Origin: an uncultured Holophagae bacterium
Lineage (GTDB): Bacteria; Acidobacteriota; Thermoanaerobaculia; Thermoanaerobaculales; Sulfomarinibacteraceae
Assembly: GCA_963801995.1 (NCBI GenBank)
Contig: CAWDGW010000014.1
Span: 643,393 to 707,392, forward strand
Reading direction: 5' to 3'
Length of the DNA stretch: 64,000 bases
The position numbers were made by a program, and so were the translations under genes. The notes beneath the pieces were generated by a model, which was not told the DNA's origin, did not search any database, and was given only the letters and a program-made list of their open reading frames with translations. This document shows, one piece after another, positions 6,819-61,080 of the stretch. Every line of letters starts with the position of its first letter. Positions within the stretch are counted from its first letter, which is position 1.

Positions 6819-7508
6819 TCAGCCGACGGCGGATTGATCGTTTGTTTCTTCGGCGCCAAGCTTCCTGATGATCATTTGCGTACTGTCGTCGAGACTCTTC
6901 CATCGGGCCTCCTTGACCGCGGTGGCGTTCCCGGATCGCAGTGCTGCCAGAAGGCTCGAGTTTCCGAGGTCCACCTGGGAGGCGCCTTCCTCGCTGAAGA
7001 CCAGGGTCACCGATGGCCGAGCCAGCAGCCACAGCCGATCGAGGATCTCGAGAAAGATGGGAGCCTCAGCGGCCTCGAAGATCAAGAACATGAAGCGGTG
7101 GTCGAGGGAGACGGCGGTTCGGTAGTCGCCACGTTCGAGGGCCGCCTGATAGCGTTCCTCGATTCGCTCGAGCTCGGCGAGGTGTTGCGGCTGCATGCGT
7201 TCCAGAAACCGCTCCAAAGCCTCTCCCTCGAGGAATTTACGGACTGCCACAGCCTCGAGATACTCTTCCACGGAAAGAACTCGGACCCGGATGTCGCGCG
7301 CGCTTCTGAGATGGAGGGCGCCCTCGTTGACCAGCTGGAGGACGGCCTCTCGGACGGGGGTGACGCTGATGCCCATTTCCTCCGCGAGATCGCGCAGGCG
7401 GACCCGCTCGCCCGGTCGAAAGCGGCCGTCCATGAGGGCATCGCGCAACGCCAGATAGGCCCGCTGACCGAGATTTTCGTTTTCGATTGGGCGGAACCTC
7501 GAGGCCAT
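6819..7508 (-). CDS. GntR family transcriptional regulator (FadR/FCD subfamily)
   Basis: 229 aa. It has an N-terminal wHTH (LRDLAEEMGISVTPVREAVLQLVNEG) and a helical C-terminal domain. It is the first gene of the minus-strand operon. Confidence 0.8.
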   Translation of the reverse strand: MASRFRPIENENLGQRAYLALRDALMDGRFRPGERVRLRDLAEEMGISVTPVREAVLQLVNEGALHLRSARDIRVRVLSVEEYLEAVAVRKFLEGEALERFLERMQPQHLAELERIEERYQAALERGDYRTAVSLDHRFMFLIFEAAEAPIFLEILDRLWLLARPSVTLVFSEEGASQVDLGNSSLLAALRSGNATAVKEARWKSLDDSTQMIIRKLGAEETNDQSAVG

Positions 7509-7538
7509 CTGCGATCCTCCATTTCGGTGCCGTTAGAT

Positions 7539-7553
7539 GTTATAACATATAAC
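7539..7553. promoter_or_regulatory. Candidate GntR operator
   Basis: Perfect palindrome GTTATA-ACA-TATAAC, 31-45 nt upstream of the GntR start codon. It fits the GT-N(x)-AC pattern of GntR-family operators. Confidence 0.35.
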
Positions 7554-7565
7554 GAAACATCTGCC

Positions 7566-7596
7566 AATCTTCAATTTTCAATCTTCAATTTTCAAT
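7566..7596. repeat. Heptamer tandem repeat H1 (AATYTTC x 4.4)
   Basis: AATCTTCAATTTTCAATCTTCAATTTTCAAT, identical over 31 nt to 32984-33014. Confidence 0.95.
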
Positions 7597-7677
7597 TTCG
7601 CCCTGGGGGATCGGATACGATACCTCGCAGCACCGGGATCGGGACCCCAACGCCCGACCGGTGAAAAGGAGACGCCT

Positions 7678-8220
7678 GTGAAGAACCCGATTGTGATCAT
7701 GACGGTGCTGCTGCTGGCGGCGGTGCCCGCTGCGGCGCAGAAGGTCTACGTGGACTGGGACCCGACGGCTGACTTCGGCTCCTTCAAGACCTTCGCCTGG
7801 GCCAAGACCGCGCCCACCTCCTTGGAGGCCAACTACCCTTTGATCCACTCGTTCATCAAAAACTCGCTCGAGTACGAGTTGGCCTCAGGCGGACTGGTGG
7901 AGAACACCGACGATCCTGACGTCTGGGTCACCTACCACGCCTCCACGAAGCAGAGCATCCAGGTCATGACCTCCTCCTACGGCTACAGCTTCGGCCCATA
8001 TTGGGGTGGCGCTGGCGCGTCCTCTGCAATGGTGAACACCTATGACAAGGGCACGCTGGTCATCGACATCTGGGATGCGCGCAAGAAGGAGGCGATTATT
8101 CGAGGGACCGCCTCGAAGGTCTTCTCGGACGAAGAGAGCAAGGCCCTCAAGCAGATTGACAAATCGATCACCAAGATCGTCACCAAATTCCGCAAGATGC
8201 GCGAAAAGGAGTCTCGCTGA
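7678..8220 (+). CDS. DUF4136 domain protein with signal peptide (paralog 1 of 4)
   Basis: 180 aa. It has a signal peptide and the motifs VYVDWD..FKTFAW, PDVWVTYH and GTLVIDIWDARKKEAIIRG, shared with ORFs at 32344, 46995 and 59514. Confidence 0.7.
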   Translation: MKNPIVIMTVLLLAAVPAAAQKVYVDWDPTADFGSFKTFAWAKTAPTSLEANYPLIHSFIKNSLEYELASGGLVENTDDPDVWVTYHASTKQSIQVMTSSYGYSFGPYWGGAGASSAMVNTYDKGTLVIDIWDARKKEAIIRGTASKVFSDEESKALKQIDKSITKIVTKFRKMREKESR

Positions 8221-9851: not shown

Positions 9852-10012
9852 AAATTCGATGTTGGCGTTTCACCTCGGCGTGTGATCAGGTGAGGGGATG
9901 ACCGATCCGCGAGAGCCGTTCGGCGCCTTGCTGTGGGACGCCAAACCCGAGATCGAACAGGGGTCGATCCGGCGCGGCCAAACACGACGGCTGACCGTGA
10001 GAGAATGCCCGC

Positions 10013-16809: not shown

Positions 16810-17378
16810 ATTTCAAAACCGCATTCGTCGCCGGGTTGATCGCTGCGTTCGTCGGGTCAGCCACGGCGCAGACCCAACAGGCGTCCTCCCAGCCGGCGCA
16901 GCAGAAGAGCCTCGCCGCGACCATCAACGTCTACGTCTTCCCCACCGAGGGACAGACGCCCGAGCAGCAGTCGACCGAGGAGGCCGCGTGTTACAGCTGG
17001 GCGGTCCAGAACACCGGCAGCGATCCCTTCGCGCTGCAGAAACAGTCGCAGCAGCAGCAGCAACAGGCCGATCAGGCGCAGCAGCAGATCGCCCAGTCCG
17101 GCAAGGGCGCTGGTGCCGTGGGCGCAGTGGGTGGGGCGGCCGCGGGAGCGCTGATCGGCGAAATCGCCAGCGACGATGCCGGCAAGGGCGCCGCCTACGG
17201 TGCGGCAGCCGGCCTCATCATCGCCCGCCGCAGGGCACGCATGGCGAAGAGCGAGGCCAGCCAGCAGGTCGAACAGCAAAGTCAGCAGGCGCAGCAGGCC
17301 ACGGCCGAGCAGATCGAGAACTTCAAGAAGGCCTTCAGCGTTTGTCTGGAGGCCAAGAAATATATGGTCAAGTACTGA
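16806..17378 (+). CDS. Glycine-zipper (YMGG-like) protein with signal peptide
   Basis: ATGA overlap with the previous gene. It has a signal peptide, a Gln-rich linker and the glycine zipper GAGAVGAVGGAAAGALIGEI..GKGAAYGAAAGLII. Confidence 0.5.
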   Translation: MNFKTAFVAGLIAAFVGSATAQTQQASSQPAQQKSLAATINVYVFPTEGQTPEQQSTEEAACYSWAVQNTGSDPFALQKQSQQQQQQADQAQQQIAQSGKGAGAVGAVGGAAAGALIGEIASDDAGKGAAYGAAAGLIIARRRARMAKSEASQQVEQQSQQAQQATAEQIENFKKAFSVCLEAKKYMVKY

Positions 17379-17457
17379 ACCGGCCGCGTGGGCTCGAAAC
17401 TCGCGGGAAACTCCGCTCGCTTCGACGCCAGCCCACCCGGCAGAGGAGGAGGTCAGA

Positions 17458-21506: not shown

Positions 21507-23205
21507 TCAGGGGCCACGGACAACGATATAGTGGTCGTTCCCGATCCACAGATCGCGAACAATGCGGGGCTGCCACGCGTCAGGGTCGTCACCGAAGATC
21601 CAGTCGGCTTCGTCCTGCTCGATGAGCACGATGGATCGGGGATAGACCTGGAAGAACCGCTCCACCTGGGAGGGGCTCTCCAACAGCTCCACCCGGGCGT
21701 CGGCGTAGAGGCCGAATGAACCCATCTTCCGGAAACCGTAGGCGCTCCGGTTGTAGACGAGCCCCATGTGGGTCTCGTCGCCCATCTGCTCCCGGATCCA
21801 GCGCCCCTGGACCTTGGTGGACTTGATGGGATTGGCCGCCGGCAGGACCCAGGCGAGCAACATCAGGTAGACGATGATGTGGGTCGCGCCGGTGCGCACC
21901 AGGGTGCCTCTGGCGTTTCGACGCCAAGCTGCCAACCCCACCCACAAACCGCCGACGGCCAGGGCTGCGCCCAACACCGTGACCGGGACTCTCAGGTCGC
22001 GAATCGCTCGGACCACGTCGGAGGATGGTTCAGTGGGATCCACGACAGCCAAGAGACCAGTACCGACCGCTGCCAAAACGCCTCCGATGACGACGAGCAG
22101 AATGGCCGTCAACCAGCCGTAGATGTGGACGGGACGGGGAGACGGGGTTTCTGCCGAGGATGTGGTGGAGCCGAGCATTGCCGCAATCCACAGTCCCAAC
22201 ACGAGGGCGACTACGGGATAGGCCGGCAGCATGTAGAGCTGTCGTTTGGTCGCCGCCAGGGAGAGAAATACGAAGAAGGCACCGAACCACCAAAGCAGGA
22301 GCTGAGTGTTTCGATCGCGCCAGAGCTTGGCGCGGTGGACCCACACCGCGGCAAAGGGGATCAGGAGAGACCACGGCGCGAGGTCTCCCCAGATGTTCAC
22401 CAGGTAGTAGTGGATCGGTTTGCCGTGGCCTCGATCCGCGCCGGCGAAACGGGCGAAGTTCTGGGCGTAGAGTTCGTAGAGGATGTTCTCAGAGCCCATG
22501 GCCCGGGCACAGGCGATGAACCACGGCAGGTAGACCGCCAGCGAAACCAACGCAAGAGGAGCCAGCTCCAACAAACGCCGCCACTCTTTTCTGGTAGCCG
22601 TGCCAAAGGGTCAGCACCAGACCCGGCAGCAGCACGCCGAGGGGGCCTTTGACGAGCATGGCGACGCCGAACAGGGCGAATCCGGCCACCCGAAGCAACC
22701 ACCGAGGGCGGTCGCCGGCACCGGCCGCATACAGCAGGAATCCCGCGGTCATGGCCAGGCCGAATTGCATGTCGGGTCGATAACCCACTGCCTGGAAGAC
22801 GAACTGCTGGATGGTCAGGAGGATGAAGCCGGCCCACAGACCGGTCTGAGGGTCGTACCACCGGGATCCGATCCAGCAAGTGAGGAGCACCAGTGCGACC
22901 GCCGAAAGAGCCGTGGGCAGGCGCAGGGCAAATTCGGTGAATCCCCCCAGCGCGTGGGCCGATACCAAACCGGTCCAGTAGATCATGGGAGGGTAATCGA
23001 CCCAGGGAACCCCGATGCGTTTGGGTGTCACCCAGTCACCGCTTTGGTACATGGTGAGGGCGGCTTCGGCGATGTCGGGCTCGTCGGCGTACCACATGTC
23101 GCGCAGGCCGTTGAACGGCACGAAGAGGGTCAGGCCGATGAGCCCCAGCAACAGCATCCTGTGGCGGATGGCCATTGACGTCATCGCCGAGGTGTTCGGA
23201 TTCAT
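21507..23205 (-). pseudogene. Second ArnT-like GT39/83 glycosyltransferase with one apparent frameshift
   Basis: ORFs 22489-23205 and 21507-22574 are contiguous parts of one membrane GT (DEPDIAEAALTM..VDYPPMIYW). Removing one A from CAGAAAAGAG (plus-strand T-run 22587-22590) joins ..LWHGYQKEWRRLLELAPLAL.. Confidence 0.7.
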
Positions 23206-23211
23206 GGCAGT

Positions 23212-24462
23212 TTATCCGGGAGCTTGGTGGTCGCCCGGAATCGCATCCAGCTCAGTGACCGCCCTCCGCACCCGGTCGGCGATCCAGTCGATTTGTTTGG
23301 AACTGAGCTCGGGGTATGCAGGCAGGTGAAGCACCTCTCGCTCTGCCCTGGCTGCGTTTGGGAACGAACCGCCGCCGTCGCCGATGTTGGTGCAATCTCG
23401 CATGTAGTGGTGTTTGGAGTCCACACCGAGCTCCAGCAGCCTGGTGGCCACTTCGTGCAACCTGGGCATGAGGGCGGTCACCAACATGTAGTTGGAGCGG
23501 ACATCCGGATCGTCGCTGCGTTGGAAGCGAACCACATCGTCAAGGTGGTGCATCAATCGCTCGGCGTTGGCGATCCGCGTTTCCACCTGGGGGCCCACAG
23601 TCTTCATCTGGTCCAATCCAAGGGCCGCCTGGTAGGGCGTGTAGCGTCCCATCCTGCCTTCCATGGTGGTTTCGTCGGGCTGGTAGCCCGAGGCGAACCG
23701 CTCAGAGTCCTCTTTCTTCGCAAGCACCCGGAGGGCCGGATAGACCCCCAGATTGAAGGTCAGAGGATTGGTCACGACGGCCTCAAAGGTGGTTTTCATG
23801 AGTCGTTTGCGGAGCCACGAACCGGACTTTGGATCCTGGGCCCTGGCCACCTCTCTCACCCGATCCGCCAGGGTCGGGTCCGAGACCGTGACCATGCCGC
23901 CGCCCATGGTGTTGACCGGCTTGGAGGTTTCGAAGCTGAAGTAGCCATAGGTGCCGAAGGAGCCGGCCGATTGGCCGGAAACCGAAGCGCCGTAGCAGTG
24001 GGCGCAGTCCTCGATCAGTACGGCCCCGTGGGCCTTGGCGATCTCGCGAATATCTCGGATCCGGCACGGCACCCCATAGAGATGGGTAGCGATCACCACA
24101 CTGGTGCGGTCCGAGATCATATCCTTCAGCGCCTCGGGGTCCATGCCCAGGGTGTCGAGCTCGCAGTCCGCGAATCGCACCGAGTAGCCGAGGGTGTGGG
24201 CGAGATATGGGACCACCGGGTAGGCGAAGGCCGAGCAGATCACCTCCGCTCCGGGCTCGAGGTCGAGGGCGTCGATGGTGAACCGAAGTCCGGCCCGTCC
24301 CGATGGAACAGCCACCGCGGCCGGAGCTCCGATGAACTCGGCAAAGGCGTGTTCGATTCGGTCGATGGCCTCGGGCCCACCCTTGTGGTCGTTGAATCCG
24401 GCGCCGATGGCACGCCTCCAGGCTCGCGGCGGAAGATGGATGCGTTGTCGGGCGATAGCCAT
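23212..24462 (-). CDS. DegT/DnrJ/EryC1/StrS family aminotransferase (ArnB-like sugar aminotransferase)
   Basis: 416 aa. The motifs VPSGRAGL, THLYGVP and FSFETSKPVNTMGGGMV (PLP-lysine context) support the call. It ends 6 nt upstream of the GT39 gene. Confidence 0.75.
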   Translation of the reverse strand: MAIARQRIHLPPRAWRRAIGAGFNDHKGGPEAIDRIEHAFAEFIGAPAAVAVPSGRAGLRFTIDALDLEPGAEVICSAFAYPVVPYLAHTLGYSVRFADCELDTLGMDPEALKDMISDRTSVVIATHLYGVPCRIRDIREIAKAHGAVLIEDCAHCYGASVSGQSAGSFGTYGYFSFETSKPVNTMGGGMVTVSDPTLADRVREVARAQDPKSGSWLRKRLMKTTFEAVVTNPLTFNLGVYPALRVLAKKEDSERFASGYQPDETTMEGRMGRYTPYQAALGLDQMKTVGPQVETRIANAERLMHHLDDVVRFQRSDDPDVRSNYMLVTALMPRLHEVATRLLELGVDSKHHYMRDCTNIGDGGGSFPNAARAEREVLHLPAYPELSSKQIDWIADRVRRAVTELDAIPGDHQAPG

Positions 24463-24525
24463 GGTCAGTCCTTTACGGGTGATCCGGTCGATCAGCGGCG
24501 ACCGGGACGGGGCATTATATATAGG

Positions 24526-24813
24526 GATTGAAAATTGAAAATCGAAGATTGAAGATTCCGCCCGCCCACCCAGGGGAGAAGGGGAGAAGGGGAGAAGGTG
24601 AGAAGGGGAGAGGTCCCCTGCCCACCCACAGGAAATGTGGAATGTGGAAACCTGGATCGGTGTGTGGCGTTGTTACCTGGACGTGCAGGGGACGTTGGAC
24701 TTTCGACTTTTGACTTTGGACTCGTTCGGACGCAGACACGGACGAGGGTGGGTGGGGGAACTGCTACCTGCCAACTGCTAACTGCCAACTGCTACCTGCC
24801 AACTGCCAACTGG
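24526..24813. repeat. Five concatenated short-tandem-repeat blocks filling a divergent intergenic region
   Basis: The blocks are: 24526-24557 (GATTGAA-type, H1 reverse); 24573-24613 (GGGGAGAA x5, flanked by GCCCACCCA direct repeats); 24631-24656 (GGAAATGT/GGAATGT); 24697-24723 (GGACTTT-type); 24761-24813 (CTGCYAM x7, H3). Confidence 0.95.
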
Positions 24814-24866
24814 TTGGGGCGTGCCGAATTGACTCTCGACCGCCGCGACCCGTAAGATCGGACGCC

Positions 24867-25955
24867 GTGACCGAACCGGATTTCTCCCCGACCGTCGCAT
24901 CCGACGAAAGCCAAAGCCTCGGCGACATGTCGTCAGCCGGTGACGCGGAAGCTCAATCGCCAAACCTCGAGGGCGAGATCCAGCCGGAACCCGTGTCCGG
25001 GTGGCAGCGGTGGGCGCGGTGGGTCGGGTTCGCGATTCTGGTGGTGGTCTCGGCCCACGGGATCCGCCAGTTCGTCAACGGAGATGCGACGGCGGTGACG
25101 GCCTACTGGAGCCAGCGCTACACCATCCTTCCCATGGTGTTGATCTTCGCCATGACCGACGTGGCCGTGGAAATGATTGCCTGGATGTGGGTTTACACCC
25201 GGTTCGGGATGAAAGCCATCGACCGTGTGGGGTTGGCGGTGGGGCTGTCCGGCAAGGCCGGGCTGCTGCTTCCCGCCCAGCTCGGCCGGCTGGTCCGCCC
25301 GGACGAAATGGTGCGGCTGGGCCGGGGCACCCTGCCCCAGTGCCTCAAGGCCGAGGCAGTGGTCTTCGTCCTCGATTCCATTTCGGTGCTGGCTTTGTTC
25401 GCGTTCCTGGTGGCTTATCGGGTCCACGGGCTGTTGGCGCCGCTGGCGGGGGGCGCAGTCATCGGAACAGCGCTTCTGATGGGTAACTGGCTGTTGAAGT
25501 TGCTGTCGGGAACCAAGCTCGAATTGCCGAGGGGGTTCTGGTGGAGCTGGGTCACCTTCCTGATCGTGGTCGTCCAGTCCACCGGTTGGATCGCCCACGG
25601 TCTCGCCTTCTTCATGCTGGCCTCCGATCTGCCGGGAAACGTCGGCTTATGGGACGCGCTCTTCCTGGCGCCCGGCTCGGCGGTGCTCGGACTGGGCAGC
25701 GGCGTGCCCGGCGGAATCGGTGCCACAGAGGCCCTTCTTGGCGCGTCCATGGGGTTCAAAGGGGTTCCCCAGGAACACCTGGCCATGGGGGTCGCGGCCT
25801 TCCGGATCGTGACCTTCTGGTTGCTGCTGCCCCTCGGTTGGCTGGCCCTGGCCTACGTCGGCCGTCAGGTTCGAAAACAGCGCGCCGACGCCCTCCATGC
25901 CGAGACATCGACCCCCGAATCCCGAACTCCGAACCCCGAGGAAAGCGCCCGATGA
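24867..25955 (+). CDS. Flippase-like / lysylphosphatidylglycerol-synthase-TM-region (UPF0104) family membrane protein
   Basis: 362-aa polytopic protein. The C-terminal motif GSGVPGGIGATEALL is typical of the family. GTG start, uncertain. Confidence 0.5.
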   Translation: MTEPDFSPTVASDESQSLGDMSSAGDAEAQSPNLEGEIQPEPVSGWQRWARWVGFAILVVVSAHGIRQFVNGDATAVTAYWSQRYTILPMVLIFAMTDVAVEMIAWMWVYTRFGMKAIDRVGLAVGLSGKAGLLLPAQLGRLVRPDEMVRLGRGTLPQCLKAEAVVFVLDSISVLALFAFLVAYRVHGLLAPLAGGAVIGTALLMGNWLLKLLSGTKLELPRGFWWSWVTFLIVVVQSTGWIAHGLAFFMLASDLPGNVGLWDALFLAPGSAVLGLGSGVPGGIGATEALLGASMGFKGVPQEHLAMGVAAFRIVTFWLLLPLGWLALAYVGRQVRKQRADALHAETSTPESRTPNPEESAR

Positions 25956-32247: not shown

Positions 32248-32343
32248 AACTGGATTGGACCACGGCCGAGAGTGGCATGCGGAAAGGCTCCGAGTGAGGG
32301 GTCGAGGACGTTCCGGACTACAGGCTTTTCAAGGGAGGACACG

Positions 32344-32925
32344 GTGAAAAGAGGACTTGGATTTGGACTGGCGGTACTGCTGTTCGCAATGCCCGCCGCC
32401 GCGTTGGATGTCTACGTGGATTACGATCGCTCGGTGGATTTTTCGGCCTACAAGACCTTCAAGTGGGGCCGCACCCCCAACACGTCTCTGAGCGGCCAGT
32501 CCCCCTTGATGCACTCGCGGATCAAGAACGGCATCGAGTTCTACCTGGTGGAGGGCGGAAAAATCGAAGTCGATGAGGATCCTGACCTCTACGTGACCTA
32601 CCACACCTCCACCTCCGACGAAACGCAGTTTTCGATCTCGGGCATGGGCTATGGATTCAGCACCGGCTGGTCCTGGGACCCCTATTGGGGAGGTACGTCG
32701 GGAATGAGCGGTGGAGGCGCAAACACCACGACCAATGTGTCCACCTATAAGTCGGGGACACTGGTGATCGACATCTGGGATGCCAGAACCAAGAACATCG
32801 TTTGGCGGGGTACCGCAGAGTCCGCCATTCCGGAGAATCCGAAGAAGGCCGCCAAAAAGATCGAGAAGATCTTGCAGCAGATGGTCGACCGCTTTGCCAA
32901 GATGAAGGCCGAAGCGGCCAAGTAA
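32344..32925 (+). CDS. DUF4136 domain protein with signal peptide (paralog 2 of 4)
   Basis: GTG start after GGAGGA. Motifs: VYVDYDRSVDFSAYKTFKW, PDLYVTYH and GTLVIDIWDARTKNIVWRG. Confidence 0.7.
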   Translation: MKRGLGFGLAVLLFAMPAAALDVYVDYDRSVDFSAYKTFKWGRTPNTSLSGQSPLMHSRIKNGIEFYLVEGGKIEVDEDPDLYVTYHTSTSDETQFSISGMGYGFSTGWSWDPYWGGTSGMSGGGANTTTNVSTYKSGTLVIDIWDARTKNIVWRGTAESAIPENPKKAAKKIEKILQQMVDRFAKMKAEAAK

Positions 32926-32983
32926 CATGATCGCTACCGCCCAAAACTAGCAATTCGCAGCGGTGGATGGGGTGGGGGGGGGA

Positions 32984-33014
32984 AATCTTCAATTTTCAAT
33001 CTTCAATTTTCAAT
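32984..33014. repeat. Heptamer tandem repeat H1 (AATYTTC x 4.4)
   Basis: 31 nt identical to 7566-7596. It is flanked by G-runs (GGGGGGGG on the 5' side, GGGGG on the 3' side) and ends 17 nt before the CDF start codon. Confidence 0.95.
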
Positions 33015-35081: not shown

Positions 35082-35108
35082 AGGCCGTGCCTTGGGTGGG
35101 TGGTGGAA

Positions 35109-35125
35109 CTGCCAACTGCCTACTG
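35109..35125. repeat. Heptamer repeat H3 (CTGCCAA-type, 2.4 units)
   Basis: CTGCCAACTGCCTACTG overlaps the AsmA stop codon. Confidence 0.7.
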
Positions 35126-46520: not shown

Positions 46521-46650
46521 AGATCCAATATCCAAGTTCCAGGATGCGAGATGCGAGATGCGAGATGCGTCATTCGGAATGGAAAGAGTTGGAGCGATGA
46601 TCTCGGTGCATCCAGCATCCAGCATCCAGCATCGAATATCGAGATGTGAA
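46521..46650. repeat. Cluster of heptamer tandem repeats
   Basis: The cluster comprises: ATCCAAT/ATCCAAG/TTCCAGG at 46521-46543; GATGCGA x4 at 46543-46570; CATCCAG x3, then CATCGAA/TATCGAG/ATGTGAA, at 46609-46650. Confidence 0.95.
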
Positions 46651-46661
46651 AGGACTGTGAG

Positions 46662-46931
46662 ATGAGACCGAACGCGTTCAAGATTGTGATCGGGTGTGCA
46701 TGTGTTCTGCTGGCCGTCGGGATGATCGAAGCGGCGGACAAGGAGTTTCAGGGAACAATCGGCACGACGCTGGCCGACTCCGAGGAGTGGTGGCCGGCGC
46801 CGGTGGCGCCGCCCGAGGGTGCGCCCAACGTTTTGATCTGGCTCATCGACGACATGGGCTACGGTCACTCGATCGCCTTCGGCGGGCTGACCCCCATGCC
46901 GACTATTGATGGTCGGCTGCGCGGAGATTGA
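46662..46931 (+). pseudogene. N-terminal fragment of an arylsulfatase, truncated before the catalytic Cys
   Basis: The 89-aa ORF ..WWPAPVAPPEGAPNVLIWLIDDMGYGHSIAFGGLTPMPTID parallels residues of the 17458 sulfatase (YWPPRVVPPKGAPNILLIMTDDAGYGVSSTFGGVIPTPAMD). It then stops. Confidence 0.7.
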
Positions 46932-59430: not shown

Positions 59431-59460
59431 GGCGGCGGTTCGGTGGTTGAGGGGTGGGAC

Positions 59461-59485
59461 AAATCGAACGTCGAAAATCGAAAAC
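59461..59485. repeat. Heptamer repeat (AAATCGA-type x3.5)
   Basis: AAATCGA ACGTCGA AAATCGA AAAC, about 30 nt upstream of the DUF4136 start. Confidence 0.8.
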
Positions 59486-59513: not shown

Positions 59514-60077
59514 ATGAGGATCCTGCTCGTTTTTGCCATGCTCGCAACGCTCGGCGTTGCGCCTGCCGGTGCCCAGACGGTGTACGTGGACTACGACCGG
59601 GGGGTCGAGCCTGGTACGTTCACGTCGTTTGACTGGGTGCCGACGCCGGAGACCTCGCTTCAAGACGTCGACCCGCAGCTCCACTCGCAGGTGAAGAACG
59701 CCATCGAGTACTACCTCACCAAGGGCGGCCTGACACAGGTGGACATGACCCCCGAGCTGCTGGTCACCTACCACACCGAAGTGGCCGGGTTGGTGAGGCT
59801 CGATGCCACCAGCTACGGTTACGACTACGGGCCTGGATGGACCTGGGACCCGGATTGGGGCGAGGAGGCCGGGGATTACAGCAAGAAGGTCCGGACCTAT
59901 CCCCGAGGCACCCTGATCATCGACATCTGGGACATGGCCACCGGCATGGTGGTGTGGCGGGGGACTGTGGTGGGCATCGTCGCCGAAACGCCGTCAGATG
60001 CGGTCGACGAGCTCGACGAGGCCCTGCGCGCCATGGTCGCGAAATGGCAGGAGATCTCCCGGGGAACTCAAGATTGA
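59514..60077 (+). CDS. DUF4136 domain protein with signal peptide (paralog 4 of 4)
   Basis: RBS AAGGAGAG. Motifs: VYVDYDRGVEPGTFTSFDW, ELLVTYH and GTLIIDIWDMATGMVVWRG. Confidence 0.7.
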   Translation: MRILLVFAMLATLGVAPAGAQTVYVDYDRGVEPGTFTSFDWVPTPETSLQDVDPQLHSQVKNAIEYYLTKGGLTQVDMTPELLVTYHTEVAGLVRLDATSYGYDYGPGWTWDPDWGEEAGDYSKKVRTYPRGTLIIDIWDMATGMVVWRGTVVGIVAETPSDAVDELDEALRAMVAKWQEISRGTQD

Positions 60078-60088
60078 AAATTGAAGAT
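60071..60088. repeat. H1 heptamer repeat, reverse orientation (2.5 units)
   Basis: AGATTGAAAATTGAAGAT contains the DUF4136 stop codon and is followed by CCCCCC. Confidence 0.8.
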
Positions 60089-60122
60089 CCCCCCACCGCC
60101 CGGTCGGTCGGGTCGCGGAGAT

Positions 60123-60209
60123 GTGCAGCCAAGATGGCCGCACCACAATTTGGCACAGCCGATACGAAGGGCGAATCAGCACGGCGGATTTGTGGTGCGG
60201 GCTTCCAGC

Positions 60210-60220
<11 letters not shown>
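60123..60220. repeat. Inverted, diverged copy of the junction module of the 162-bp array
   Basis: GTGCAGCCAAGATGGCCGCACCACAAT, a 39-nt loop, then ATTTGTGGTGCGGGCTTCCAGCCTGCACAGCTCC. This is the reverse complement of the array segments ..GGAGCTGTGCAGGCTGGAAGCCCGCACCACAAT and ATTGTGGTGCAGCCATCTTGGCTGCAC. Confidence 0.85.
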
Positions 60221-60270
<50 letters not shown>

Positions 60271-60321
60271 GCCTGCCGGGTTCGCGGAGCAGAAACGCAG
60301 GGGGACAAAGGGGCAGAGGAG

Positions 60322-60990
60322 ATTGTGGTGCAGCCATCTTGGCTGCACACCACCACGGTCGTGTCAGCAGGCTGGAAGCCCGCACCACCATGGGCCCTGC
60401 CATCCTGGCGTTGGAGCTGTGCAGGCTGGAAGCCCGCACCACAATCTGGCCCAGCTGATTGCAGGAGCGAGTCGGCGGGAGAAATTGTGGTGCAGCCATC
60501 TTGGCTGCACACCACCACGGTCGTGTCAGCAGGCTGGAAGCCCGCACCACCATGGCCCCTGCCATCCTGGCGTTGGAGCTGTGCAGGCTGGAAGCCCGCA
60601 CCACAATCTGGCCCAGCTGATTGCAGGAGCGAGTCGGCGGGAGAAATTGTGGTGCAGCCATCTTGGCTGCACATCTCCACGGTCGTGTCAGCAGGCCAGA
60701 GGCCCGCACCACCATGGCCCCTGCCATCCTGGCGTCGGAGCTGTGCAGGCTGGAAGCCCGCACCACAATCTGGCCCAGCTGATTGCAGGAGCGAGTCGGC
60801 GGGAGAAATTGTGGTGCAGCCATCTTGGCTGCACATCTCCACGGTCGTGTCAGCAGGCCAGAGGCCCGCACCACCATGGCCCCTGCCATCCTGGCGTTGG
60901 AGCTGTGCAGGCTGGAAGCCCGCACCACAATCTGGCCCAGCTGATTGCAGGAGCGAGTCGGCGGGAGAAATTGTGGTGCAGCCATCTTGG

Positions 60991-60996
<6 letters not shown>
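60322..60996. repeat. 162-bp tandem repeat array, ~4.2 copies, hairpin-rich, apparently non-coding
   Basis: Units start at 60322, 60484, 60646 and 60808, with a partial unit at 60970 (exact 162-nt spacing). Copies are near-identical, with a few shared variants in copies 3-4. Confidence 0.95.
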
Positions 60997-61049
<53 letters not shown>

Positions 61050-61051
<2 letters not shown>

Positions 61052-61080
61052 CCAACTGCCAACTGCCACCTGCCAACTGC
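61050..61080. repeat. Heptamer repeat H3 (TGCCAAC-type x4.4)
   Basis: TGCCAAC TGCCAAC TGCCACC TGCCAAC TGC, abutting the VWA gene stop codon. Confidence 0.9.

Follow-up and report, generated by a model that had tools for sequence, protein, structure and literature searches.

The 404-bp intergenic gap analysed here lies in a 64-kb stretch of DNA, hereafter the window, from an uncultured Holophagae bacterium of the Acidobacteriota, where it separates two divergent operons with ArnB-like and flippase-like first genes. The tandem repeat arrays in this gap are probably local members of a lineage-specific, genome-wide population of intergenic heptamer repeats, of the kind known as short tandemly repeated repetitive (STRR) sequences or long simple sequence repeats (LSSR), piled up between two conserved, outward-facing predicted promoters of the sigma70 type. 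The best reading is that the repeats are a lineage trait of an uncultured acidobacterial clade and not a dedicated switch for the flanking genes.

The tandem arrays in the gap are real and statistically solid. Tandem Repeats Finder (TRF) identified five of them within positions 24527–24812 (Table 1), four with 7-nt units and one with 8-nt units, which confirms the five short-repeat blocks that an earlier, sequence-only reading of this DNA had described. The same reading had the gap built "almost entirely" of repeats. The repeats are there, but the wording was overstated, as the arrays cover 181 of the 404 bp, or about 55% when three G/C boxes are included, and the remainder consists of two core promoters, a leader and non-repeat spacers. 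The direct repeats that it had seen around one of the blocks are indeed present, as copies of GCCCACCCA at 24564 and 24620 that flank the octamer array. With a tract finder, three period-7 tracts and one period-8 tract reach a score of at least 8 in the gap, compared with a mean of about 0.003 per period in 300 dinucleotide shuffles. The small open reading frames (ORFs) in the gap, 24492–24788 on the minus strand and 24528–24713 and 24598–24855 on the plus strand, were rejected as coding because the indels of 7, 14, 16 and 4 nt that separate the window from the contig L143 would break any reading frame.

Heptamer arrays are not peculiar to this gap. The tract finder reported 11 period-7 tracts in the window, no tracts with periods of 4–6 or 10–12, and none in shuffled sequences; the period-7 excess was measured on these 64 kb of the genome and on the loci of its relatives. 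The closest relatives of the ArnB-like protein, at 81–83% identity, are encoded by uncultured Acidobacteriota metagenome-assembled genomes labelled Holophagae or Thermoanaerobaculia. Among their loci, L003 carries ten period-7 tracts in 21 kb, L001 four and L002 three, and a second piece of the L001 genome (L148, 20.5 kb) carries another ten. The other 58 genome loci, about 1 Mb in all, contain two such tracts, and 79 metagenome loci (458 kb) contain four, three of them in the clade members L063 and L122. Over about 1.5 Mb, the more distant loci are thus nearly free of period-7 arrays.

The arrays avoid genes and reuse a limited vocabulary of units. In L148, where called intergenic gaps account for 20% of the locus, all ten arrays are situated in such gaps, and with a crude gene map about 45 of 52 arrays fall in an intergenic fraction of about 18%. 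Within the window, AATCTTC/AATTTTC units recur at 7565 and 32984, TTCCGAA arrays stand at 60238, 61019 and 62841, and GATGCGA and GCATCCA arrays at 46543 and 46608. The AACTGCC family appears at 35107 and 61049 of the window, three times in L003, also in L002 and, by direct reading of the sequence, in L142. A census of 49 arrays in 155 kb of clade sequence sorted the units into three superfamilies, namely AATYTTC/AACTTTC/AACGTTC, AACTGCC/CCAACGG and TTCCGAA/GAATTCN/AACTCAG. Unit choice across arrays is non-random: 97 pairs of arrays differ by no more than one mismatch, compared with a null mean of 23 and a null maximum of 40. The most frequent copy number is four (21 of 49 arrays), followed by three (14 of 49).

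Whole units have been gained and lost between close relatives. The 1.8-kb contig L143, assembled from Illumina reads of another sample, encodes a protein of the same 90% cluster as that of the window, and the two sequences match at 256 of 267 positions of non-repeat intergenic DNA. All 41 alignment-gap positions between them correspond to whole units (7 + 14 + 16 + 4 nt): the window has four GTCNAAA units and L143 three, two TTCCACA units against four, and five TCTCCCCT units against three, and G-box 1 is shorter in L143 by one GGGT unit. The array closest to the ArnB-like gene has four units in both, with a different order of the variant units. Another pair of contigs, L063 and L145, shares 1,732 of 1,744 aligned columns, with five mismatches and a single indel of one 7-nt unit. 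Repeat-number differences in sister genomes, which the sequence-only reading had proposed to look for, are present in three arrays and one G-box between the window and L143, and in one unit between L063 and L145. Stable arrays also exist, two of them being identical or one base apart between L001 and L002. For a second sister-genome comparison at the locus of a DUF4136 lipoprotein gene, no relative above 79% identity was found.

The promoter-proximal array offers the clearest view of this turnover. It reads AATCTTC AATCTTC GATTTTC AATTTTC AAT on the gene strand, and in an alignment of eight orthologs its position between a G-box and the -10 box is constant, with an invariant T every 7 nt. Four units are found in the window, L143, L142, L001 and L003, three in L063, L145 and L150, and at least three in L152, where the contig end is reached, while L149 has a degenerate stretch of about the same length. 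The units themselves differ by lineage: AATCTTC/AATTTTC in the window, GTTCTTC in L142, AATTCGC in L063, AATCTGC in L003 and a mixture in L001. This pattern is the mark of concerted evolution, in which arrays contract and expand again and again and come back to a length of about four units. The distance between the two -10 boxes follows the array content, from 70 bp in L002, which has no array, to 138 bp in L003 (two arrays), 340 bp in the window (five arrays) and 376 bp in L142 (at least six arrays).

A promoter scan of the gap returned two sites where 0.2 were expected, and both face outward, away from the repeats; the promoter and terminator scans found neither an inward-facing promoter nor a terminator-like site in the gap. 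On the minus strand, the predicted promoter combines TTTTCA (24541–24536) with TATAAT (24519–24514) at a spacing of 16 nt and matches the consensus at 10 of 12 positions, its -35-like hexamer being located inside the proximal heptamer array. The plus-strand hexamers lie wholly outside the repeats and, as judged by eye, are kept in L142, L003 and L002, array-less relatives included. The leader of the ArnB-like gene, about 50 nt long, is identical in the window and L143 and partly conserved in the eight orthologs, the conserved parts being CCGGTC and the GAAGAGGA ribosome-binding region. In the marine-metagenome ortholog L152 (37–69), this leader contains a 16-nt tandem duplication, ATGCCCCGTCCCGGTC x2, directly past the -10 box. 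On the other side, a start of the flippase-like gene at the GTG 24867 would make the mRNA leaderless, with the codon only 8 nt past TAAGAT; in L003, the corresponding GTG reads out of frame with the conserved SGWQRW segment. Promoters for extracytoplasmic function (ECF) sigma factors, assembled from a G-box and AAC units (GGAAC-N16/17-CGTT or TCAAA), were considered and rejected, since the hand-counted spacers of 6, 13, 14 and 20 nt are never 16–17 nt.

These observations could be combined in the following mechanism. The arrays would arise and turn over through replication slippage, which fits the whole-unit gains and losses between close relatives and the homogenisation within arrays. They lengthen a stretch of DNA, predicted to be untranscribed, between two conserved core promoters, and the distal arrays might be largely tolerated slippage products, or filler. 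If transcription starts about 7 nt past the -10 box, the proximal array would occupy roughly -20 to -50, and this AT-rich array with the G-box before it could be the upstream, -35/UP-like half of the ArnB-like promoter, kept at a set length. Such a role would explain why the length is retained despite the drifting sequence. As the -10 box stays locked to the 3' edge of the proximal array, no unit indel there can alter the -35/-10 spacing, and unit changes might therefore bring about at most a graded tuning of both operons, without on/off switching.

A classical contingency locus, in which slippage of units in the promoter region reversibly switches the envelope operons on and off, is difficult to maintain, and we consider it improbable. 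Its models are the hmw1A/hmw2A repeats of Haemophilus influenzae and other simple sequence repeats in promoters. Arrays occur throughout the lineage beside unrelated genes, those in the window including genes for a GntR regulator, DUF4136 lipoproteins, a cation-efflux protein, an AsmA/YhdP-like protein and proteins without known function, with no concentration at surface or host-interaction genes. Unit numbers do differ between sister contigs, as a contingency locus would have it, but the number in the proximal array is largely conserved, and with the predicted promoters a unit change would alter neither spacing nor 5'-untranslated region (5'-UTR) nor reading frame: the plus-strand promoter is outside the repeats, and proximal indels leave the -35/-10 spacing unchanged. 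A part of the flanking genes in modifying envelope glycans or lipids is plausible, and the hmw heptamers with their nearby G-rich segment provide a precedent (PMC12721329). However, the hmw repeats are located in the 5'-UTR and number at least 11 in natural strains (PMC12721329), whereas the arrays of the gap are predicted upstream of both transcription starts and have 2–8 copies. Slipped-strand phase variation, as suggested by the sequence-only reading, survives in so far as the unit indels between sisters speak for hypermutability; the idea of a dedicated surface-gene switch is not supported, given the lineage-wide arrays, the promoter geometry and the conserved proximal count.

The G-boxes require a separate consideration. 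Read toward each gene, the gap is composed of modules in which a (GGGY)n G-box is followed by an array: the box at 24572–24558 with the AATYTTC array and the box at 24629–24612 with the TCTCCCCT array for the minus-strand gene, and the box at 24746–24758 with the AACTGCC array for the plus-strand gene. G-box 1 adjoins the 5' end of the proximal array, and seven orthologs have a comparable box. The pairing is found again at 32963–33014, 35094–35125 and 59445–59484 of the window and is repeated in L148, L003, L142 and L063. Of 32 G-boxes, seven have an array no more than 45 nt away, a zone that amounts to 3.3% of the sequence, although this proximity may largely reflect the intergenic location common to both; within the window, arrays adjoin four of the five intergenic G-boxes, which is suggestive, though the numbers are small. 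A replication-strand bias of G-box orientation was also tried and rejected, with four boxes on the plus and four on the minus strand while the cumulative GC skew rises steadily.

The G-box and about four AAT-phased heptads might form a functional promoter-upstream module, which contacts RNA polymerase or a dedicated protein and replaces a canonical -35 element, with its length under selection. We regard this as possible, if rather unlikely. The position of the proximal array is kept in eight orthologs despite the turnover of units, and the T invariant every 7 nt would suit such a module, but the periodic T could also come from the descent of one ancestral array. Array-less relatives carry an ordinary TTGCAG or TTGCGA -35 element instead, four units are the mode, and four of the five intergenic G-boxes of the window adjoin arrays; yet many G-boxes have no array. 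AATCTTC/AATTTTC arrays elsewhere are of interest in this respect, one with a G-box just upstream of another gene start (32963–33014) and one without a G-box (7565–7598). Arrays of like build are nevertheless also found at the 3' ends of convergent genes (35107, 61049 and 60072), where a promoter is unexpected, and both the binding protein and the transcription start are hypothetical.

A more general proposal extends this element to all arrays: the G-box and about four AAT-phased heptads would be an evolvable cis-element specific to the lineage, on which RNA polymerase or a dedicated heptad-reading protein could dock. Its length would stay constant during a turnover of sequence by concerted evolution, and the genome-wide arrays would be a family of such elements rather than slippage debris. 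We judge this proposal unlikely, and it stays live through the recurrence of units, the abutting boxes and the four-unit mode. If it is true, the arrays would give a comparative handle on the purpose of bacterial heptamer repeats, on why they have seven bases and on why they come in four units.

Several points weigh against our preferred reading of the arrays as a lineage-wide population of slippage products. Slippage from random seeds leaves unexplained the recurrence of a few unit families at unlinked loci and in different genomes, the (GGGY)n boxes that abut the arrays, and the four-unit mode, the units being without G-tracts. L143 is only about 91% identical to the window in coding sequence and hence represents a sister lineage from a different population. 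The -35-like hexamer in the proximal array differs between species, and both the promoter positions and a possible influence on expression are predicted. As the contigs were assembled from metagenomes, some of the unit counts could stem from the consensus or from decisions of the assembler, a doubt mitigated by arrays shorter than a sequencing read.

Non-B DNA structures offer another explanation for G-boxes and arrays in one gap. The octamer tract as H-DNA, the (GGGY)n boxes as G-quadruplexes and slipped direct repeats might absorb the negative supercoiling that two divergently transcribing polymerases generate between them, and thereby couple or insulate the two promoters. The arrays are placed exactly between back-to-back predicted promoters, and the gap contains a 40-nt polypurine/polypyrimidine tract, which is the octamer array, together with three G-boxes. 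G-quadruplex (G4)-forming heptamers with a preference for four units are known from Xanthomonas and Nostoc (PMC4692102), but among the gap units only the 8-mer GGGGAGAA has a G-tract, while AATCTTC, AACTGCC, GACTTTC and AATGTGG have none, and the G-boxes hold only about three G-runs. Heptamer repeats of Xanthomonas are, moreover, under-represented between divergent ORFs (PMC4692102), and the non-B structures of the gap are postulated from the sequence. We find a supercoil buffer of this type very improbable.

The sequence-only reading had also suggested that the GGA-containing units, if transcribed, form a CsrA/Rsm-type sponge RNA, in which they act as protein-binding sites. This suggestion was not borne out, and we assign it an almost negligible probability. 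GGA occurs 18 times on the plus strand against 10.4 ± 2.8 expected, a modest excess that comes from the repeat units themselves, but ANGGA occurs twice against 2.3 expected. GGA density is not kept in L142, L003 and L001, and unit indels or different ortholog units remove the motifs. Both predicted promoters face outward, no terminator was found in the gap, and Rfam gave no match for the region, either at the gathering threshold or at E ≤ 1. Fold z-scores of -1.58 and 0.03 are not significant, and the predictions for the region show none of the marks of a sponge RNA, namely a promoter and a terminator that would delimit a discrete transcript, many (A)NGGA motifs in hairpin loops and a match to a Csr/Rsm family. 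The AACTGCC array as RNA is less structured than its shuffles (z +2.53). A tblastn search found no CsrA homolog in the window and L001–L003, about 127 kb of clade sequence, which is weak evidence.

Table 1. Features of the divergent gap and its borders, in window coordinates.
Feature	Position	Strand	Details and basis
DegT/ArnB-like aminotransferase gene	23212–24462	-	Followed by ArnT-like glycosyltransferase; profile matches
Intergenic gap	24463–24866		404 bp, between two divergent operons
Leader of ArnB-like gene	24463–24513	-	-10 box to ATG (24460–24462); alignment
Predicted -10 box TATAAT, ArnB-like gene	24519–24514	-	Promoter scan; CTATA..ATG columns invariant in eight orthologs
Promoter-proximal AT-rich heptamer array	24527–24557	-	ATTGAAA x4.4 (plus-strand unit); TRF
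G-box 1	24558–24572	-	TGGGTGGGCGGGCGG on minus strand, (GGGY)n tract; sequence reading
Octamer array	24572–24611		AGGGGAGA x5.0 (minus strand: TCTCCCCT); TRF score 73
G-box 2	24612–24629	-	GTGGGTGGGCAGGGGACC on minus strand; holds second GCCCACCCA copy
Short heptamer array	24630–24652		AATGTGG x2.3–3 (minus strand: TTCCACA); TRF x2.3 at 24634–24649
Non-repeat spacer	24653–24689		One mismatch, window against L143
Heptamer array	24690–24722		GACTTTY about x4 (minus strand: GTCNAAA); TRF GACTTTC x3.6 at 24698–24722
G-box 3	24746–24758	+	GGGTGGGTGGGGG, adjoins 5' end of AACTGCC array; sequence reading
Heptamer array	24759–24812	+	AACTGCC/AACTGCT/ACCTGCC x7.7; TRF scores 73–101; also called by TRF as 14-mer super-unit x3.4
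Predicted sigma70-like core promoter, flippase-like operon	24829–24858	+	TTGACT (24829–24834), 18 nt, TAAGAT (24853–24858); scan, 9 of 12 matches
GTG start of longest flippase-like ORF, start uncertain	24867–24869	+	8 nt past -10 box; alternative ATG 24927
Flippase-like/MprF-N-like membrane protein gene	24867–25955	+	Followed by class I/II aminotransferase

The flanking operons were described as lipopolysaccharide (LPS)-modification operons in the sequence-only reading. Because every family match of the flanking genes is below the equivalog cut-off, a role in envelope glycan or lipid modification, LPS modification included, is plausible but not specific. The ArnT-like gene (21507–23205, minus strand) is split into the overlapping ORFs 22489–23205 and 21507–22574, which match positions 5–208 and 208–429 of the ArnT profile; its orthologs are unbroken, with 566–574 amino acids, and the split gene is either a frameshifted pseudogene or the result of an assembly indel. 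The last 45 nt or so of the ORF 24867–25955 contain a (CCGAAYC) array of about four units at 25909–25939, which adjoins the overlapping start of the next gene (ATG 25952) and is the only clearly coding period-7 array of the window.

Other arrays of the clade are accompanied by further structures. For every DUF4136 lipoprotein gene that we encountered, a heptamer array stands no more than about 100 bp from the start or the stop, a post hoc observation that includes the genes at 7678–8220, 32272–32925 and 59514–60077 of the window, 915–1487 and 10001–10564 of L148, and 7001–7576 of L146. The association holds even in L146 and L147, which are otherwise nearly free of arrays. Directly past a DUF4136 stop codon, a short module at 60072–60100 consists of ATTGAAAATTGAAGAT followed by the C-box CCCCCCACCGCCC, below the TRF threshold. 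AACTGCC/CCAACGG arrays are often flush with gene 3' ends (35107–35125 and 61049–61080 in the window; 17354–17435 and 17960–18016 in L003), where they read GGCAGTT or GGCCGTT on the sense strand just past the stop codon. Those of the AACTGCC family tested in the window are unstructured as RNA, and G·U-rich hairpins of (GGCAGUU)n or (UUCCGAA)n, for instance as terminators, were rejected with z-scores of +0.78, -0.68 and -0.73. The (GATGCGA)x4 and (GCATCCA)x4 arrays at 46540–46633, which lie 38 nt apart and upstream of a small ORF at 46662, are imperfectly inverted copies of each other, and as RNA the pair folds into one long interrupted hairpin (-39.4 kcal/mol, z -2.63).

At 60121–61009, a 162-bp unit of palindromes resembling repetitive extragenic palindromic (REP) sequences is repeated 4.2 times at 98% identity. 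The palindromes are TTGTGGTGCAGCC-ATCTT-GGCTGCACA and the inverted variant TGTGCAGGCTGGAAGCCCGCACCACAA, and identical (TTCCGAA)x4.9 arrays bracket the repeat at 60235 and 61016. A related palindrome is located upstream of a DUF4136 gene in L148 (~9900–9935). Between the array at 7565 and a GntR-family gene (6819–7508, minus strand), the inverted repeat AGATGTTATAACATATAACGAAACATCT with the palindrome GTTATAAC at 7533–7562 looks like the operator of the GntR-family regulator.

The acidobacterial clade adds a new phylum-level host to those of heptanucleotide repeats. Its orthologous promoter regions, with no, two, five and at least six arrays, constitute a natural series at one locus, supplemented by sister contigs that differ by whole-unit indels and by one array of about four units whose sequence is homogenised in each lineage. 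With this series, neutral slippage and selection on length can be compared. For annotation, the lesson is to take heptamer arrays of this lineage neither for locus-specific phase-variation switches nor for small-RNA genes.

Bacterial heptanucleotide repeats of the STRR and LSSR type have been noted since 1990 and surveyed since 2007. To our knowledge, neither their function nor their origin has been established. According to the statements in PMC4679880 and PMC4692102 that cite Mrazek 2007, heptanucleotides are the commonest class of long simple sequence repeats, polymerase slippage is the proposed cause, and a length of 7 nt is proposedly favoured through the interaction of polymerase with DNA. 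As far as these accounts describe the repeats of Calothrix, Nostoc and the 2007 survey, they share with ours the over-represented tandem 7-nt units in intergenic DNA, several unit types per genome, a free-living host of high GC content, variability between relatives and slippage as the proposed origin. By the same accounts, ours differ in the acidobacterial host, in the (GGGY)n box that usually abuts the array and in the several different arrays within one gap. The arrays of the gap and the lineage have all the attributes of this class: 7-nt units arranged head to tail (8-nt in one block), an excess of period 7, a bias toward non-coding DNA, units recurring at unlinked loci, and variation in unit number and sequence between relatives. 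Among the papers covered by a literature search, none links heptamer repeats to Acidobacteria.

The GGGAATC heptamers of Xanthomonas and the GGGGAYT heptamers of Nostoc are intergenic, differ among close relatives, favour four units and are not tied to any gene class (PMC4692102). Our arrays are likewise genome-wide and intergenic, vary extensively in length and sequence at the same loci, and show no link to gene class. The preference for four units, which in Xanthomonas and Nostoc follows from the G-tract in each unit, is seen here as well (21 of 49 arrays), but a G-tract of at least three is missing from most of our units, and the G-runs are found in the adjacent box instead. Furthermore, their repeats are under-represented between divergent ORFs, whereas ours pile up between divergent genes. 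The TAACTGA repeats of marine Beggiatoaceae, some Cyanobacteria and some Bacteroidetes also have two to six intergenic heptamer copies, often shortly upstream of start codons, with no functional pattern among the downstream genes (PMC4679880). They differ in having one dominant unit and a proposed action in mRNA, in contrast to at least three superfamilies and gap arrays that are predicted upstream of the transcription starts.

In mechanism, the closest counterpart that joins a heptamer array to a G-rich partner is (ATCTTTC)n of Haemophilus influenzae hmw1A/hmw2A, also a pyrimidine-rich heptamer with a nearby G-rich segment, upstream of a surface operon and subject to slippage (PMC12721329). 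The hmw repeats, of at least 11 units, are transcribed in the 5'-UTR, where they base-pair to the G-rich arm and undergo cleavage by RNase III (PMC12721329). Arrays of the acidobacterial lineage, in contrast, have 2–8 units in the gap, lie upstream of the predicted starts and are distributed genome-wide, and as RNA the single arrays tested fold no better than their shuffles (z -0.73 to +2.53). Despite these individual differences, the feature is a new lineage with a known, poorly understood class of bacterial repeats.

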